This document shows positions 1,444 through 40,765 of a stretch of 64,000 nt of DNA, in pieces. A model generated the notes under the pieces. That model made no database searches. It saw only the letters and a program-made list of their open reading frames with translations, and was not told the DNA's origin. The stretch spans positions 10,891 through 74,890 of IMG/VR virus record IMGVR_UViG_3300020049_005939; one strand, written 5' to 3'. Each line of letters starts with the position of its first letter. Position 1 is the first letter of the stretch. The translations under genes and the position numbers were made by a program. Source of the DNA: a virus (taxonomy: Duplodnaviria; Caudoviricetes).

Positions 1444-1731
1444 ATGAAAAAAATGTTTTTATTTTTCAATACAATGAATAGATATAGAATAGTTGGAAAC
1501 ATTGTTCATATATCTACCCCAAGAGAATCAAACAAAAAAGAACACCCATTATCCCGAGAATTATTTCGAGAAAGAGCATCTAAGATCTTTGTTGTTTGGA
1601 AATTTTTGTTCCCCGAATATGAATATAACGGAAAAAAAGTTTCTAGAGAAACCTTCAAAAAAGAACTAAAAAAATATACCGAGAAACAAAGATTAACACT
1701 AAAATTAATGAATTCTTTCGATGAAACTTAA
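1444..1731 (+). CDS. small protein with shared C-terminal helix
   Basis: Ends VSRETFKKELKKYTEKQRLTLKLMNSFDET. Confidence 0.65.
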   Translation: MKKMFLFFNTMNRYRIVGNIVHISTPRESNKKEHPLSRELFRERASKIFVVWKFLFPEYEYNGKKVSRETFKKELKKYTEKQRLTLKLMNSFDET

Positions 1732-2080
1732 ATACTTTAAATTAGCAAAAAAGATGTCCAAGTTTAGCACCCATTCCCAGCATCAATTGGGAGCGGTCAT
1801 AGTTCGTAAAACTCAAATAGTTGGGTTAGGTTTTAATCAAATTAAAACTCATAGCAAAAGCCCCCATCCATATAAGTCTATACACGCAGAGTTCTCTGCT
1901 ATTCTCAATAGTGGAGAATCTGATCTAAAGAATCACGATATTTACATCTATAGAGAAAAGAAAGATGGAACACTGGGAGATTCTTTCCCTTGTACAGTTT
2001 GTCTTAAAATGTTAACAGATCTTAACATAGGTAACATCTTTTACATTAAAAATAACCAATTTGAGAAGCATCGTGTATAA
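1721..2080 (+). CDS. cytidine/dCMP deaminase-family zinc protein
   Basis: HAE (SIHAEF) and PCxxC (FPCTVC) zinc motifs. Confidence 0.85.
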   Translation: MKLKYFKLAKKMSKFSTHSQHQLGAVIVRKTQIVGLGFNQIKTHSKSPHPYKSIHAEFSAILNSGESDLKNHDIYIYREKKDGTLGDSFPCTVCLKMLTDLNIGNIFYIKNNQFEKHRV

Positions 2081-2348
2081 ATCGGGGTATTGTATAGATG
2101 GGTGGCATTCTAAGCGATATTACATATTTAATGACGTAATGCTCATTGGTAGAAAAATCCAAAGATCGGCTTTAGTCGCTTCTAATGCTACTCATTGGAG
2201 TGTCATTTATGACAAGTATAATTGTTTTTTCTTAGTAAATGGAGTAACGGATAAAAAACACTTGACAAGAATTTCTATAAAAAAAGAGTTGCAAAATAGA
2301 AAACTTAAACATATACTCATAGATGTCTTTAAGGAGGACAAAGAATGA
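2061..2348 (+). CDS. small protein with shared C-terminal helix
   Basis: Ends RKLKHILIDVFKEDKE. Confidence 0.55.
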   Translation: MRSIVYKSGYCIDGWHSKRYYIFNDVMLIGRKIQRSALVASNATHWSVIYDKYNCFFLVNGVTDKKHLTRISIKKELQNRKLKHILIDVFKEDKE

Positions 2349-3418
2349 AACCAACTAAGATTTTTGATATGATGGATTTGGCAATGCGAGCAAGGGATTT
2401 GGGATTAACCTTTAACCCCCTTTTTGTGGGACCCCCGGGGTTAGGTAAGTCGGAGATTGTTCAACAATGGTGCGGTAAAGAGAAGATTCCATTTATTGAT
2501 CTACGAGCTGCTCTTTTGGAAGCTCCCGATCTAATCGGCTTCCCTGTTGTAACAATGATCGCCGGTAGACAGACCACCGTACACGCTACGCCCGACTTTT
2601 GGCCTACAGAAGGCAGAGGAGTCATCTTCCTCGACGAAGTTAATAGGGGAACTACAAGCGTTATGAACTGCTTCATGCAGCTACTAACTGATCGTAAAGT
2701 TAAACAATACACCCTTCCACAAGGATGGGTTGTTGTTGCGGCCATTAACCCTGAAAACGCGGAGTATGACGTTAATACTATGGACCCAGCTCTTCGAGAT
2801 CGATTTGAGCTATTTGAAGTATCTTATGATAAGTCTTCTTTCATGGAATTCATGAAGTCTAATGACTGGGATAAATCTGTAGTCAATTTTATCGAATCTA
2901 ATGTGTGGCAATACGTTCGACCAGAAGAGTTGAGCAATGTCCCTGGAGCTAAGTACCTATCTCCACGAACCTTCTCAAAGCTCAACACTGCGCTTAAAGC
3001 GGGTATTAACTCTAAAGAAGATGAATTGATTATCTTTGAATCAGTTCTCGGACGAAATACAGGCTCTTCTTTCTTTCATTTTCGACATAACGAGTCTCCT
3101 GTGCTATTTAAAGACTTAGTTACCGATACTAAGAATGCTCTTAAGAAACTCAAGAAGTACAGCAATCCTGAGGATCTTAAGAATGGATACATCAGTGTTA
3201 CTGTTAAGGATATTATCGAGAATGATGGAGAACCAACTTTAATCACTGACGAACTGTTGATTGATATCCTTAAGATTATTCCTGCTGACCAAGCTCCCCA
3301 ATTGGTATTGGACCTAGCCCTTAAACGCGGCGACCATAAAGGGGAAATCTTCGAACGACTTAAGAAAGATAAAGATCTTAAGAAGCTACTTTCTACTATA
3401 CTTCACCATAAAGGGTAG
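2345..3418 (+). CDS. MoxR-like AAA+ ATPase
   Basis: Walker A GPPGLGKS, Walker B IFLDEVNR, AAINP sensor, DPALRDRF arginine finger. Confidence 0.85.
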   Translation: MKPTKIFDMMDLAMRARDLGLTFNPLFVGPPGLGKSEIVQQWCGKEKIPFIDLRAALLEAPDLIGFPVVTMIAGRQTTVHATPDFWPTEGRGVIFLDEVNRGTTSVMNCFMQLLTDRKVKQYTLPQGWVVVAAINPENAEYDVNTMDPALRDRFELFEVSYDKSSFMEFMKSNDWDKSVVNFIESNVWQYVRPEELSNVPGAKYLSPRTFSKLNTALKAGINSKEDELIIFESVLGRNTGSSFFHFRHNESPVLFKDLVTDTKNALKKLKKYSNPEDLKNGYISVTVKDIIENDGEPTLITDELLIDILKIIPADQAPQLVLDLALKRGDHKGEIFERLKKDKDLKKLLSTILHHKG

Positions 3419-3446
3419 TGTATAGTAATTGTATTGGAGGTAATTA

Positions 3447-4670
3447 ATGGAAGATCTAAAGGGAAGACAACTAGCATCTGCTATCTATAAACTGCTGAGT
3501 GATGAACCTTTCTATGGGGCATTCTTACAATCGTTAACTATTTTTTATAGTGAAATGGTTCCGACTGCCGCTATCTTTTTTGATAAACATTCTAAAGAAT
3601 TTAAAATTACTATCAATGATAAATTTTTTAATTCATTAGTGTTGGACGAAAAGGCTGGGGTTCTTCACCATGAGGTTCTTCATTTTGTTCATAAACACAT
3701 GCTTCGTTTATTCACAAGCGAATGTATGAATGATAGAAATGAAATGATGTTGAGAAATGTCGCCGCTGATATGGCAATTAATCAACAGATTAAAGTCTTA
3801 CCTAAAGATTGTGTAGATTATAAAAAATGGAAACTTAAGTCGGGAGAAATTTTTCCACCCAACCAAACTTCTGAAACTTATTTAGATTTGCTTCGTAACA
3901 ACAAAGAAGCCAATAAAGATAAGTTTAAGCAAAAAGGTGAAGATGGCGAGGATGGAGAACCAGGAGAAGGGGAAGGTGTTTTCGATAAACATTTCTACGA
4001 TAGTCTTACTGACGAAGAAAAGCAAAAGTTTCTAGATGAATCTAAAAAACTGATTCAAAGAAGCATTGAGAAATTGAATCACGATTACTCAAAGGTGCCT
4101 CAATCCGTTAAAGATCTTCTACAAGACATTGATGGGATGAATACTAATATTAATTATAAACAGATTCTTAAGAATGCTATTAAGAAAACTGTGTCTTGCC
4201 AGGATAGGTCCAGCACATGGAAACGTCCAAACAAACGGTACGGAGTGTACTCCCCCGGAACAAAGCTTGGTAATCTACCGCAATTAGATTTCTATATTGA
4301 CACTTCGGGTAGTATTTCTTACAAAGAACTTAGTTCATTTTTAAATATTATGAATGAGTTTTTGAAGGTTGGTGTAAGAACTTGCGATCTGTTCTTGTGG
4401 CATACGTCTGTATATAAACATAAGAAACATAAAAAAAATAACCCATTTAAAGAAAATGAAGTTGAAGCGGGTGGGACTGACATCAGCGAAGCGATGGCTT
4501 CTATTAAGAAACGTAGACCCGACCTTGCCATTATTTTAACCGATGGATACTACGAGATGGCTAATGTGGCAATCGACTCTCAAGTAATCTTTATTATCTC
4601 CGAAGGAGGCAATATGAATCACCCATTAGCTAAAATTGGAAAGACTATTGGATTTGGTGGATTAAAATGA
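3447..4670 (+). CDS. metallopeptidase-vWA protein (DUF2201-like), partner of the AAA
   Basis: HEVLH zincin motif, acidic/Gly linker, MIDAS IDTSGS, GGTD and ILTDG. Confidence 0.85.
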   Translation: MEDLKGRQLASAIYKLLSDEPFYGAFLQSLTIFYSEMVPTAAIFFDKHSKEFKITINDKFFNSLVLDEKAGVLHHEVLHFVHKHMLRLFTSECMNDRNEMMLRNVAADMAINQQIKVLPKDCVDYKKWKLKSGEIFPPNQTSETYLDLLRNNKEANKDKFKQKGEDGEDGEPGEGEGVFDKHFYDSLTDEEKQKFLDESKKLIQRSIEKLNHDYSKVPQSVKDLLQDIDGMNTNINYKQILKNAIKKTVSCQDRSSTWKRPNKRYGVYSPGTKLGNLPQLDFYIDTSGSISYKELSSFLNIMNEFLKVGVRTCDLFLWHTSVYKHKKHKKNNPFKENEVEAGGTDISEAMASIKKRRPDLAIILTDGYYEMANVAIDSQVIFIISEGGNMNHPLAKIGKTIGFGGLK

Positions 4671-37038: not shown

Positions 37039-37821
37039 CTATTTGTAATACCAGTGGTACCCTCGCGCTCCTACCCGATCTCCCTTGAGTACCCTATTAA
37101 CTTCTTTGGGTTTAAATCCATCAGATTCAACATCTTTTAGGTGTTGATATTCCTTAATCTCCCCAGTAGTCATGTGTTTTCTTATGATAGGTTTAAGCCA
37201 CGATTGTTTGAATGACCCTATAAGGTTAAGAGCTTCTTTTTTGTAGGACTCAGGGTCATCCGTGGTCTTATAGAACCAACAATAGTCTTGGCCTTTAGCT
37301 GATTCTTTATTTAGACAGTCGTAGATGGATCTAACTGAGAAACCAGCGCGACGAGCATCGTGTACTCTTTCGTAAAATTTAACATCTCCACTGTAAATGG
37401 ATACTGATACTATTGGAACAGCTCTATGAGCGGACTCTTCCTTCATTCTCGTAATTCGGTGTTGTTTTTTAATCGGATCTTTCCAAGACTCTTTTACTTT
37501 ATTAGAGATATATTCTCTTGGGATTGTGGGTCTAGCTGGGATACAATTATATCCTTTCTGAGTTGTGTACGCTTCGTAAAGTTCTATAAAATAATTTTCT
37601 TTTTCAATTAAACTGGTTCCGAATGGTACTTCGTAAATTAAAGTGAAAGTAAATTTATCAGCTCCATATTTATGGATAGCTTTATGTAAAGGTCTTTGAG
37701 ATTTTTCATTAGACTCTAGTTGATGTCTTTTCCACCTATCGTAAGGATTTTGTAAAGATGTTGAACCGATGTAAATTCTAGTATTAACTGAATTTGTTAT
37801 TTTATATATGTAACCGGGCAT
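37039..37821 (-). CDS. free-standing GIY-YIG homing endonuclease
   Basis: MPGYIYKITN..N.RIYIGST, R...H, GYN; AGGAG supports ATG 37821 rather than 37869. Confidence 0.85.
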   Translation of the reverse strand: MPGYIYKITNSVNTRIYIGSTSLQNPYDRWKRHQLESNEKSQRPLHKAIHKYGADKFTFTLIYEVPFGTSLIEKENYFIELYEAYTTQKGYNCIPARPTIPREYISNKVKESWKDPIKKQHRITRMKEESAHRAVPIVSVSIYSGDVKFYERVHDARRAGFSVRSIYDCLNKESAKGQDYCWFYKTTDDPESYKKEALNLIGSFKQSWLKPIIRKHMTTGEIKEYQHLKDVESDGFKPKEVNRVLKGDRVGARGYHWYYK

Positions 37822-37840
37822 TATATTATCTCCTAGAGCT

Positions 37841-37869
37841 AGTATAACAAAAGAAAAGGCAGAAGTCAA
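37841..37869 (-). promoter_or_regulatory. sigma70-type promoter for the GIY-YIG gene
   Basis: TTGACT-17 nt-TATACT with TG extension. Confidence 0.65.
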
Positions 37870-37909: not shown

Positions 37910-40296
37910 TTATGAAGCGTTAACTACGTTACGGACGAGCACGTTATGGCCCGGTGCTGAGCAAAACAATGCTTGATCCGAGAAACAACGTAACTCGTAT
38001 CCAGCAGAGTTTTCAAGATCTCGGAAGAACTCGTCGCCCTGACCAGGACGTTTGAACGTCAAGTCAGTTGAACCAATTCTGTACCAATCTTCAACAGCAA
38101 CTAGGTAAGCATAACCTTCTTTAACGTGAATAGAAGGCTCAATTACGAGCGTTCCATTTTGCGAATGGAAAGTTAGCGACTTAGCGCCGTTTTGCATTGA
38201 CTTCTCGCTGTACGACTGATCGTACATACGAAGAGCGGCTTGGTCATTCAAGAGGTTCGACCATGCTCGGTTATTAACCAAACATAGAAGTTCTCCGTCT
38301 TGACCTTTTTCTACAGCGCGAGCTGCTGCGTTTGTAAGTTTGTTAAAACTTAGTGCAGCAGAAGCAGCGTCGTAGGTGTTACCTTTGAAAAGGTTATAAG
38401 CACTGGTGTCAATACCGAACAAAGTACCAGACGTAATGCTGATAATTTTATGAATTCCTGCGAATTCATTTCCGTATGCGCCTTTGTGCCAGATAACGTC
38501 TTCTGAGTCAACAGTTACGACGACGCCAGGAACGGCTGAAGCTAGGGTAAGAGTACGAAGATCCATATCAACCGATTTAATGACTGCTTCACCGCGTGAA
38601 GTCAATCCGTCGTTTGAACGAATTTCGATAGGCATGTTCTCAGAACCTGCCCAAATACCGGGTGCCCATTCGGAAGTACGAATGGTTAGAACTGCGCCTG
38701 AAACAGCAGAGATACGACCGTATCCCATTTGTCCGTAGAGCATTTCGATTTCTAATTTCTTAGCCATCGAACGCAACATGTTAGCAACCAAGAATTTGGT
38801 TGCATCCATGAATGCTTTTTCTCCACCTTGTGCAGCTCTGCTTGCCGAAGAGTAACCAAGGATAGAACGAAGAACCAAAGGATTACCTTTGATTGTCGCA
38901 TCTTTGATTACGCCTGCGACTGGAGCATTCAAGTTGAATGCATCTTCGTCGCTACCGGCAAAGGTTCGTTGCCGGAATGTTATCGCTAAAGCTTTTTATC
39001 TCTAGCTTCTTCTAGTTTCCTAGAAGGTCAGCATATCTTTTCATCCTATATATAGGAGCTGAAGTCTCGTGGCAGAATTATATTCTAGATTATTCTCTAG
39101 GTTCATCTGCTATGCGTTGCGCGTGTGAAAAATCTTTATTTTCTTCACTTCCGCTCTGATTAGCATCGAAAATATATTTAAAAGTGTATCCCTTACTGCT
39201 ATTTCTTCCATAAGCTTTTTTGCAAATGGATACAACATTAGATGGGTTTAAACCGTAATTTAAACATTCTCTAACAGTTTGTAAAATAGTTATTTCTCCA
39301 GTTTTAATATTTGTCATTTCAATTGGGCGTCCACCTAATCCTCTAGCAATTTTAATTCTTTGCTCGGTAGATCGGACTTCCCCTCTTCGACAAAGGACGG
39401 GTTTTCCTTTTTTAGCTTCACTAATCTTTTTTCTTAATTCATCGGAACAAATTCCGTTTTGTTCGCCGCCAGCTCTATGATTATATCCATTCGGATGCAT
39501 AGAGTTATTCGATTGAACAAATTGAACTTCCAATGAATTGAGTTCAGATATAGTGTCAGCAGTTGCAATTTCTTCCACGGTAAAGTTTTGTCTACCGTGT
39601 TTTTTAATAGCACTGCTAATATGCCTATTGCCACGTTTTTCATTACAATGATCTTCAAATCTATCATTAACAGAAGGTTTAGTTGTTTGACCAACATAGA
39701 CCTTACCGTCTATCAGATTTGTGATTTTGTAAATTTTACCGTAGCTCATATTTTCGTTTTAGCCTTCCAAGTTTTTACTTCAGTACTTATTGTAACATTA
39801 CTGTTACAAAGGGGCAACCTTTATTTTACCCCGTGTTCTAATCCCAAGATAACAGGCTGGTGATATAGATTTGATATTGTTACCGAAAAGCTGTTAAGGC
39901 TTTTCTTCTGCATATCGCTATGCAGTCCAGACTATATTTTCACCCAGAGTTTGGGTGGCGCGACCTCGCGGAGAAATTATATTCTAATTGTTAAAACAAC
40001 TTAGTTTCATTCTCTAGTCGTTGCGGCTGGCCAAATTTTGATTTTTAGCCTTCACCTCGAATTGTCTCATTAACTACCAGGGATGTCAATGAGAGATTTT
40101 CGTTTTTTTCGCGCTTCCTAAGCTCTAGTTACCTAGAACTTCCGGCAATCATTTCACCGGGCTGTCGATCCTTAGGAGCGAACTTGATTTTGTTAAGTAA
40201 TTTAACTCCATCTGGAATCAATTCTTTCAGCTTATCTGCATAAGCCTCTTTAAAGAGTCCATTCAGAGTTTGAATGTTATTTGAAGTACTAGACAT
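37910..40296 (-). CDS. major capsid protein, spliced join(40156-40296, 39828-39871, 37910-38966), 413 aa
   Basis: Exons join in frame: MSSTSNN...RQPG|NLYHQPVILGLEHGV|TFAGSDEDAFNLNAPVAG...; downstream of scaffold; followed by a terminator. Confidence 0.85.
38967..39827 (-). mobile_element. group I intron 2 (861 nt) carrying GIY-YIG ORF
   Basis: 5' exon ends in U; P1 GGGGU/GCCCC; P10 AACCUUU/AAAGGUU; P7 GCAUA/UAUGC; terminal G. Confidence 0.88.
39090..39749 (-). CDS. intron-encoded GIY-YIG homing endonuclease
   Basis: KIYKITN..DGKVYVGQT, GYN, NUMOD-like C-terminal repeats. Confidence 0.85.
   Translation of the reverse strand: MSYGKIYKITNLIDGKVYVGQTTKPSVNDRFEDHCNEKRGNRHISSAIKKHGRQNFTVEEIATADTISELNSLEVQFVQSNNSMHPNGYNHRAGGEQNGICSDELRKKISEAKKGKPVLCRRGEVRSTEQRIKIARGLGGRPIEMTNIKTGEITILQTVRECLNYGLNPSNVVSICKKAYGRNSSKGYTFKYIFDANQSGSEENKDFSHAQRIADEPRE
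39872..40155 (-). mobile_element. group I intron 1 (284 nt), ORF-less
   Basis: P1 CCGGU/GCCGG; P10 AAUC/GAUU; P7 GACUA/UAGUC; P9 hairpins; terminal base appears to be A. Confidence 0.8.
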
Positions 40297-40312: not shown

Positions 40313-40765
40313 TTATTCGGCTACAACGTATTCAACTTCAAGTGATGCATCTAAAGTATTTGCAGCAGTGAAGTCAACGGTTGAGTCGCAAGTGAGCATC
40401 ATATTGCCCAAGCTTGTTAGTCCATCAGCATCGCCAAGAAATACTGGATGACTTACGCCATCAATACGACTAGCAATACGAGCAGACACCACTTTTGCAA
40501 CAGCTTCGTTAGTTTTAACGAGGATGTTGAAGATACCTGTTGCATCAGCAGCAGCTACCGAATACGTGGCAGTTTCGCCAGAGGCTAAAGCGCCACTAGC
40601 AGTTGTGATTTGATCCGTATCCTGAGTTCTGATAAAGAGAACTGCGGGTTCGTCATTCGAAGTCGTTGACGTGCCTGCTGAACCCACTACCAAAAAAGGA
40701 ATGGATAATTTTTGGACTTTAAGTTGCCGACTGGAAACTTGTGGGTCCTTTGCATTATAATTCAT
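40313..40765 (-). CDS. head-associated protein (possible decoration/minor capsid)
   Basis: Between scaffold and capsid genes; Ala/Thr-rich. Confidence 0.4.
   Translation of the reverse strand: MNYNAKDPQVSSRQLKVQKLSIPFLVVGSAGTSTTSNDEPAVLFIRTQDTDQITTASGALASGETATYSVAAADATGIFNILVKTNEAVAKVVSARIASRIDGVSHPVFLGDADGLTSLGNMMLTCDSTVDFTAANTLDASLEVEYVVAE

Follow-up and report, generated by a model that had tools for sequence, protein, structure and literature searches.

The major capsid gene of an uncultured phage of about 85 kb is probably interrupted by two mobile group I introns of the IA type, which lie 44 nt apart and would both be removed from the transcript. This reading is built on the anatomy of the gene, its homology, covariation within the RNA family and an insertion hot spot in related loci, from which we infer splicing, its efficiency and the route of mobility. 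The window, i.e., the whole stretch of 64,000 nt that was analysed, is part of the 74,890-bp IMG/VR virus record IMGVR_UViG_3300020049_005939. The parts of the capsid gene all lie on the minus strand, and are followed by a free-standing endonuclease-like ORF:

40296-40156, minus strand: exon 1 of the major capsid gene, 141 nt, 47 codons, from ATG to CAG CCC GGT
40155-39872, minus strand: intron 1, 284 nt, an ORF-less group I intron of IA type with P7.1/P7.2
39871-39828, minus strand: exon 2, a micro-exon of 44 nt, AAT CTA ... GGG GT, in frame
39827-38967, minus strand: intron 2, 861 nt, group I, assigned to the same family as intron 1, last base G38967
39749-39090, minus strand: ORF of intron 2, 219 aa, GIY-YIG homing endonuclease
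38966-37910, minus strand: exon 3 of the major capsid gene, 1057 nt with stop, 351 codons plus stop
37039-37869, minus strand: free-standing GIY-YIG ORF, 276 aa from a TTG start, directly downstream of the capsid gene

Joined by script, the three exons give 1242 nt (141 + 44 + 1057) that translate into 413 aa with one stop codon, which is terminal; the coordinates and arithmetic of the earlier note, which had claimed a 413-aa frame running through a 44-nt exon, therefore hold. Exon 1 lies downstream of an AAGGAAA ribosome-binding motif, shows 55-78% identity to the N-termini of homologues in related loci, and its final base is the U of the 5′ splice site. Exon 2 codes for NLYHQPVILGLEHG plus two nucleotides (GT) of a Val codon, and the product reads ...QPG/NLYHQPVILGLEHG/VTFAGS... 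across the two junctions (slashes), with PKDRQPGNLYHQPVILGLEHGVTFAGSDEDAFNLN as the junction peptide and a tryptic peptide of the predicted protein beginning at QPGNLYHQPVILGLEHGVTFAGSDEDAFNLNAPVAGVIK. An ORF finder run on the gene yields only a 340-aa ORF and short fragments.

A homology search with exon 3 returned 2486 homologues, the best intron-less ones being 70-74% identical over their whole length and 408-420 aa long. The alignment with intron-less homologues that the earlier note had proposed as a check agrees with the join, as uninterrupted homologues read ...KDKQPGNLYHQPVILGMEHGVTFASSDEDAFNLN..., exactly as predicted. The distance from the QPG to the TFA codons is 42 or 45 nt, i.e., uninterrupted, in 56/64 related loci with both flanks visible. 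Exon 2 shares 13-14 of its 14 residues with the intron-less homologues, and the codon differences inspected against three relatives (L007, L009 and L042) are all synonymous, indicating that it is translated sequence. The three exons account for all homologous residues, so there are no core-less mini-introns in this capsid gene.

It had been suggested in the earlier note that capsid supply depends on double splicing, with exon skipping as a possible outcome. Joining exon 1 directly to exon 3 shifts the frame and brings a stop after 51 aa, so skipping could only waste transcript. Capsid supply would depend on two splicing events, whose efficiency is put in doubt by the terminal A of intron 1, described below.

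The product is supported as an HK97-fold major capsid protein, the fold being taken from a predicted structure. Exon 3 matches PHROG 14242 (major head protein, E 4.6e-6), the capsid protein has no match in Pfam, and the gene is preceded by a 312-aa Glu/Lys-rich, scaffold-like ORF. An AlphaFold model was made of an intron-less homologue, P0002, from 40 aligned sequences (mean pLDDT 60.7, pTM 0.62), with low confidence in the N-terminal 124 residues, which include the intron sites. Foldseek's top PDB matches for this model have the HK97 fold and comprise encapsulins and capsid proteins of phages (VP1, SU10, A-1(L), Pa223 and the HK97 prohead; E down to 7e-6), and a sequence search of the PDB with the capsid profile gave no meaningful match. 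Between the scaffold-like and capsid genes is a 150-aa ORF (40313-40765, minus strand) without a Pfam or PHROG match; its location suggests a possible role in head decoration or as an accessory protein.

The two-intron anatomy, an HK97-fold capsid gene with group I introns on both sides of a 44-nt exon, is supported by the intron-less homologues, by sub-threshold Rfam matches, by covariation across the intron family and by the endonuclease ORF of intron 2. The guide and core elements predicted from the RNA sequence are as follows:

40146-40142, minus strand: guide GCCGG of intron 1
40114-40109 with 39963-39958, minus strand: P3 of intron 1
Within 40020-40014 and 39935-39929, minus strand: P7 of intron 1
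39822-39816, minus strand: P10 guide AAAGGUU of intron 2
39815-39811, minus strand: guide GCCCC of intron 2
39783-39778 with 39064-39059, minus strand: P3 of intron 2
Within 39116-39110 and 39036-39030, minus strand: P7 of intron 2

The P1 helices are CCGGU/GCCGG in intron 1 and GGGGU/GCCCC in intron 2, each with a U.G pair at the 5′ splice site, and P10 pairs the guide with the next exon over 4 bp in intron 1 (AAUC/GAUU) and 7 bp in intron 2 (AACCUUU/AAAGGUU). Both elements had been described in the earlier note and were found in both introns. So was covariation in P7, where GACUA/UAGUC in intron 1 is matched by GCAUA/UAUGC in intron 2; this is as stated there, and extends across 17 family members. 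An in-frame UAA follows the 5′ splice site in both cases, 8 codons into intron 1 and 2 codons into intron 2.

At the Rfam gathering threshold (50 bits) there were zero matches in the window. In E-value mode, intron 1 matches the full RF00028 model at 37 bits (E 2e-7), and intron 2 matches with its 3′ part at 18 bits (E 0.085), both below the gathering score of 50. The covariance-model check proposed in the earlier note is thus answered in part, in that RF00028 matches both introns but neither reaches the gathering score. The low scores are attributable to the ORF insertion and the P7.1/P7.2 helices; against the same model, homologous capsid-gene introns reach 50.3 bits in one relative (L017 intron B) and 92.1 bits in another (L051). 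Intron 1 has a minimum free energy z-score of -6.1, and its fold recovers P1, P2 (with a GNRA loop), P3, P4, P5, P6, P8, P9 and P9.1. The 3′ half of intron 2 is 75% identical to L007 intron C and 69% identical to L017 intron B.

Other members of the intron family were retrieved with the P5′/P4′ motif GCTAATCAGAGCGGAAG, which gave 26 IMG/VR loci. From these, 15 distinct 3′ halves were aligned with both window introns (alignment A1, 17 members), and the two introns are supported by covariation as members of one IA-type group I family. RNAalifold recovers P6, P7, P7.1, P7.2, P8, P9 and P9.1; 32 of the 46 pairs show compensatory changes, and pair counting finds 96.3% of cells paired, against 73.0% in shuffled alignments (reached in 0/500) and 31-46% in slid alignments. 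Within P7, the G52-C151 pair is invariant (17/17), pair 53/150 is CG in 10 sequences and AU in 7, and pair 54/149 is AU in 8, CG in 7 and GC in 2. P7.1 and P7.2 (helices 5 and 6; columns 57-61/96-100 and 67-70/84-87) are 100% and 95.5% paired, respectively, with compensatory changes. The 5′ strand of P3 lies far upstream and forms the group I pseudoknot with P7; it is complementary to its partner in 15/15 members checked, covaries through ten different sequences, and in every case an A-run comes after it. Intron 1 has the same arrangement, with a GCGCG/CGCGC P3. No further members of the family were found in the window.

Two other features of the intron sequences were noted. In A1, columns 7-9/225-227 (40062-40060 with 39884-39882 in intron 1) pair an AUC beside P4′ with G(A/G)U in 17/17 members by RNAalifold; the G(A/G)U adjoins the conserved UAACA tail, and the sole variation is U-A to U-G. 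The pairing is possibly a long-range contact with a role in placing the 3′ splice site. The J8/7-P7′-P9 segment of intron 1 (39905-39946, minus strand) shares 88% identity over 41 nt with regions that carry no annotation in 13 phiKZ-like Pseudomonas jumbo phages, and similar sequence occurs at high depth in wastewater contigs; these matches are presumably related group I cores.

Capsid genes of relatives carry introns as well. Their insertion sites were mapped manually, and the sites found are listed here with the loci that carry them:

After KD: L088
After QPG: intron 1 of the window only
Inside the Leu codon of GNL: L051
After NLYH: L007, L009, L014
After HQP: L017, L018, L042, L068, L088
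After VILG: L007
After EHG: L017, L018, L088, L092
Two bases past EHG, after GU: intron 2 of the window, L007
After ...ALTL: L021
After VAG: L096

Judged from these sequences, a stretch of about 40 codons in the capsid gene is a hot spot for introns, with at least ten insertion sites and up to three introns per gene; such introns are present in 8/64 related loci (about 12%). The hot-spot introns belong to at least three sequence lineages. One relative, L007 (IMGVR_UViG_3300017917_004432; 1550-3499), packs three group I introns (1550-2381, 2400-2620 and 2635-3499) into 48 coding bases, leaving micro-exons of 18 nt (QPVILG) and 14 nt (MEHG + GT); L088 has three gaps in the same capsid stretch.

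Protein databases also contain capsid homologues of only 351-385 aa (P0006, P0012, P0033, P0036, P0053, P0068, P0071, P0076, P0096 and P0120). They start with MEHG, VILG or intron-derived sequence, and are gene calls truncated by introns in relatives rather than genuinely shorter proteins. Introns of the same family were also seen in terminase-like ORFs (3′ exons ...ILIVDEFVRT...) of four viral contigs of about 90-112 kb (L084, L094, L095 and L104), suggesting that the family moves between packaging and capsid genes.

The ORF of intron 2 has an N-terminal GIY-YIG domain (Pfam PF01541, E 4.9e-8, 33.6 bits against a cut-off of 22.6) and matches PHROG 314 (homing endonuclease, E 3e-32). It is located in the P5 loop, its 3′ end reads through P4′-P6-P7, and in L007 the intron inserted at this position (after GGGGU) carries an ORF that shares 54% identity with it. 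Intron 2 looks like a homing intron, as it carries its own GIY-YIG endonuclease and occupies the same site in a distant relative. Intron 1 has no ORF, and no close copy of it was found in the collections searched. Most likely it travels by co-conversion with intron 2 or is the relic of an earlier homing event; co-conversion would be the simplest route, since it lies only 44 nt from the insertion site of intron 2.

A role for the free-standing GIY-YIG ORF (37039-37869), which follows the capsid gene, in collaborative homing of intron 1 is not supported. The C-terminal part of this ORF matches PHROG 20162, annotated as an HNH endonuclease, and homologues with 36-46% identity occupy the same place behind the capsid genes of L016, L049, L023, L024, L069 and L071. 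These capsid genes are intron-less, so the ORF is not tied to intron 1.

Intron 1 ends GGUAACAAUAUCA/AAUCUA, the slash marking the 3′ splice site, and its last base is A39872 rather than G, a feature missing from the description in the earlier note. G is near-universal as the last nucleotide of group I introns, with published exceptions. All of the other A1 members (16/16) end UAACA-N(2-14)-G, and the mapped 3′ ends of the relatives' introns are all G. In intron 1, the invariant, G-binding G-C pair of P7 is unchanged, so by established ribozyme biochemistry the terminal A should impair the second splicing step. Moving the splice sites of intron 1 by 1-3 nt gave no combination of a 5′ U and a 3′ G that kept the conserved protein. 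Use of G39857 as the 3′ end was also rejected: it is in frame, but it deletes the conserved NLYHQ, where relatives show only synonymous change, and has no P10. The A39872/A39871 junction is the sole one that restores the conserved protein and has a P10, which leads us to favour, with some reserve, A39872 as the splice site; a cryptic site and a defective allele are the less favoured alternatives. Efficiency may be reduced at this junction; the capsid product is needed in hundreds of copies per virion.

A second contig, with 100% identity over 4353 nt, has A39872 as well, and the two contigs are maybe not independent. Look-ups of the 340-aa ORF and of the endonuclease returned one contig only, identical to the window, and a look-up of the 55-aa exon 1 ORF returned no record. 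Exact intron 1 junction patterns gave unrelated coding matches in IMG/VR or nothing. In public RNA runs, 6-9% of sampled words were present, and four runs mapped on the region contained zero exon joints. Two identical contigs cross a splice site unspliced, but their source libraries were probably DNA.

Intron 1 could instead be splicing-defective through a G-to-A change of its last base, in which case the assembly would represent a variant that is non-viable or hitch-hikes, an artefact of the consensus, or a phage with very low capsid production. In favour of this, no other member of the 17-strong family has a terminal A, and the sole other contig retrieved is identical. We regard it as unlikely: exon 2 and the remainder of the gene show no damage and appear to be under selection, with the synonymous differences noted above, at least two contigs were assembled with this sequence, and accurate splicing of a natural A-ending group I intron has been published. 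This is the ND5-717 intron of sea anemones (hexacoral mitochondria), for which exon ligation was found to be accurate by RNA-seq (PMC8146996).

It is quite improbable that intron 1 ends instead at G39884, the nearest upstream G, which would place four residues (VTIS) between QPG and NLYHQ. Such a junction is in frame, contains no stop codon and follows the near-universal rule of a terminal G. Against it, there is no P10 pairing for GUAACA, and G39884/G39883 belong to the conserved G(G/A)UAACA tail, which in the family always lies 2-14 nt before the 3′ terminus. Nor is an insertion at the VTIS site present in any of about 64 homologous loci, where the spacing is 45 nt except in four, which lack one codon and have 42 nt. 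Finally, readings of the two interruptions as something other than introns (a fragmented pseudogene, inteins or programmed translational bypass) would accommodate the fragmented output of the ORF finder, but are highly improbable and were rejected on the sequence evidence, because each insertion forms a group I core supported by covariation, with P1/P10 guides that fit its own exons, the in-frame stops exclude inteins, and 284 and 861 nt are far too long for bypass.

In the favoured reading, with both introns spliced and intron 1 ending at A39872, the introns would have inserted in a very conserved stretch near the capsid N-terminus, and the late transcript would lose both by two-step, guanosine-initiated self-splicing to encode the 413-aa protein. 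The U of the 5′ exon would pair with the guide G in P1, P10 would align the next exon, and the stop codons 8 and 2 codons inside the introns would keep ribosomes off the ribozyme cores. Intron 1 resembles ND5-717 in having A as the last base of an otherwise normal group I core. However, ND5-717 is an obligatory, vertically inherited, organellar and probably protein-assisted intron, whereas intron 1 is small, belongs to a phage, and the other examined members of its family all end in G. Whether intron 1 is a natural phage ribozyme that ligates exons with a terminal A and an ordinary G-binding pocket, within the hot spot of about 40 codons, is in our judgement evenly balanced.

An IA core with P7.1/P7.2 is known from the td intron of phage T4, which carries I-TevI (GIY-YIG), and from other IA2 phage introns. 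As in td, P1 contains a U.G pair, an in-frame stop follows the 5′ splice site and a GIY-YIG ORF loops out from a peripheral helix; unlike td, the ORF lies in the P5 loop and reads through P4′-P7, and the interrupted gene is structural and does not belong to nucleotide metabolism. The view in the earlier note that phage group I introns are mostly found in nucleotide-metabolism, replication and some packaging genes is out of date, as group I introns have been described in the capsid genes of mycobacteriophage LittleE (PMC3706429) and, as cited in that paper, lactococcal phage Tuc2009. In these phages, as here, the virion gene with the highest expression contains an endonuclease-carrying intron, and capsid production requires splicing. 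They have one intron per gene, whereas here there are two with a 44-nt exon between them, and relatives of the present gene show a multi-site hot spot. The LittleE intron ORF is given as HNH (figure 10 legend) and as LAGLIDADG-like (text) in PMC3706429, compared with GIY-YIG here.

Several introns in one phage gene are also published, i.e., in orf142 of Staphylococcus phage Twort, a late gene with three group I introns and exon skipping (Landthaler & Shub 1999, as cited in PMC6669764). As far as that citation describes it, Twort orf142 likewise has closely spaced IA-type introns in one late gene, short internal exons and the possibility of skipping. It differs from the present gene, which encodes an HK97-fold capsid protein and has two introns (up to three in relatives), one of them ending in A, and in which skipping is out of frame. 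There are thus published precedents both for introns in capsid genes (Tuc2009, LittleE) and for several introns in one phage gene (Twort orf142); the features of moderate interest are the dense insertion hot spot in the capsid family and the A-ending intron.

For annotation, the capsid protein is corrected to 413 aa from the 340-aa ORF that gene callers produce, and a well-documented case is added to the small published set of capsid-gene group I introns. In the capsid family, a short conserved segment is a recurrent landing pad for several intron lineages. If splicing at A39872 is true, the choice of 3′ splice site in this intron family would rest mainly on P10 and the UAACA tail and not on the terminal G. 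With its terminal A, intron 1 is a compact and testable substrate with which to ask how far a group I ribozyme can dispense with that nucleotide.
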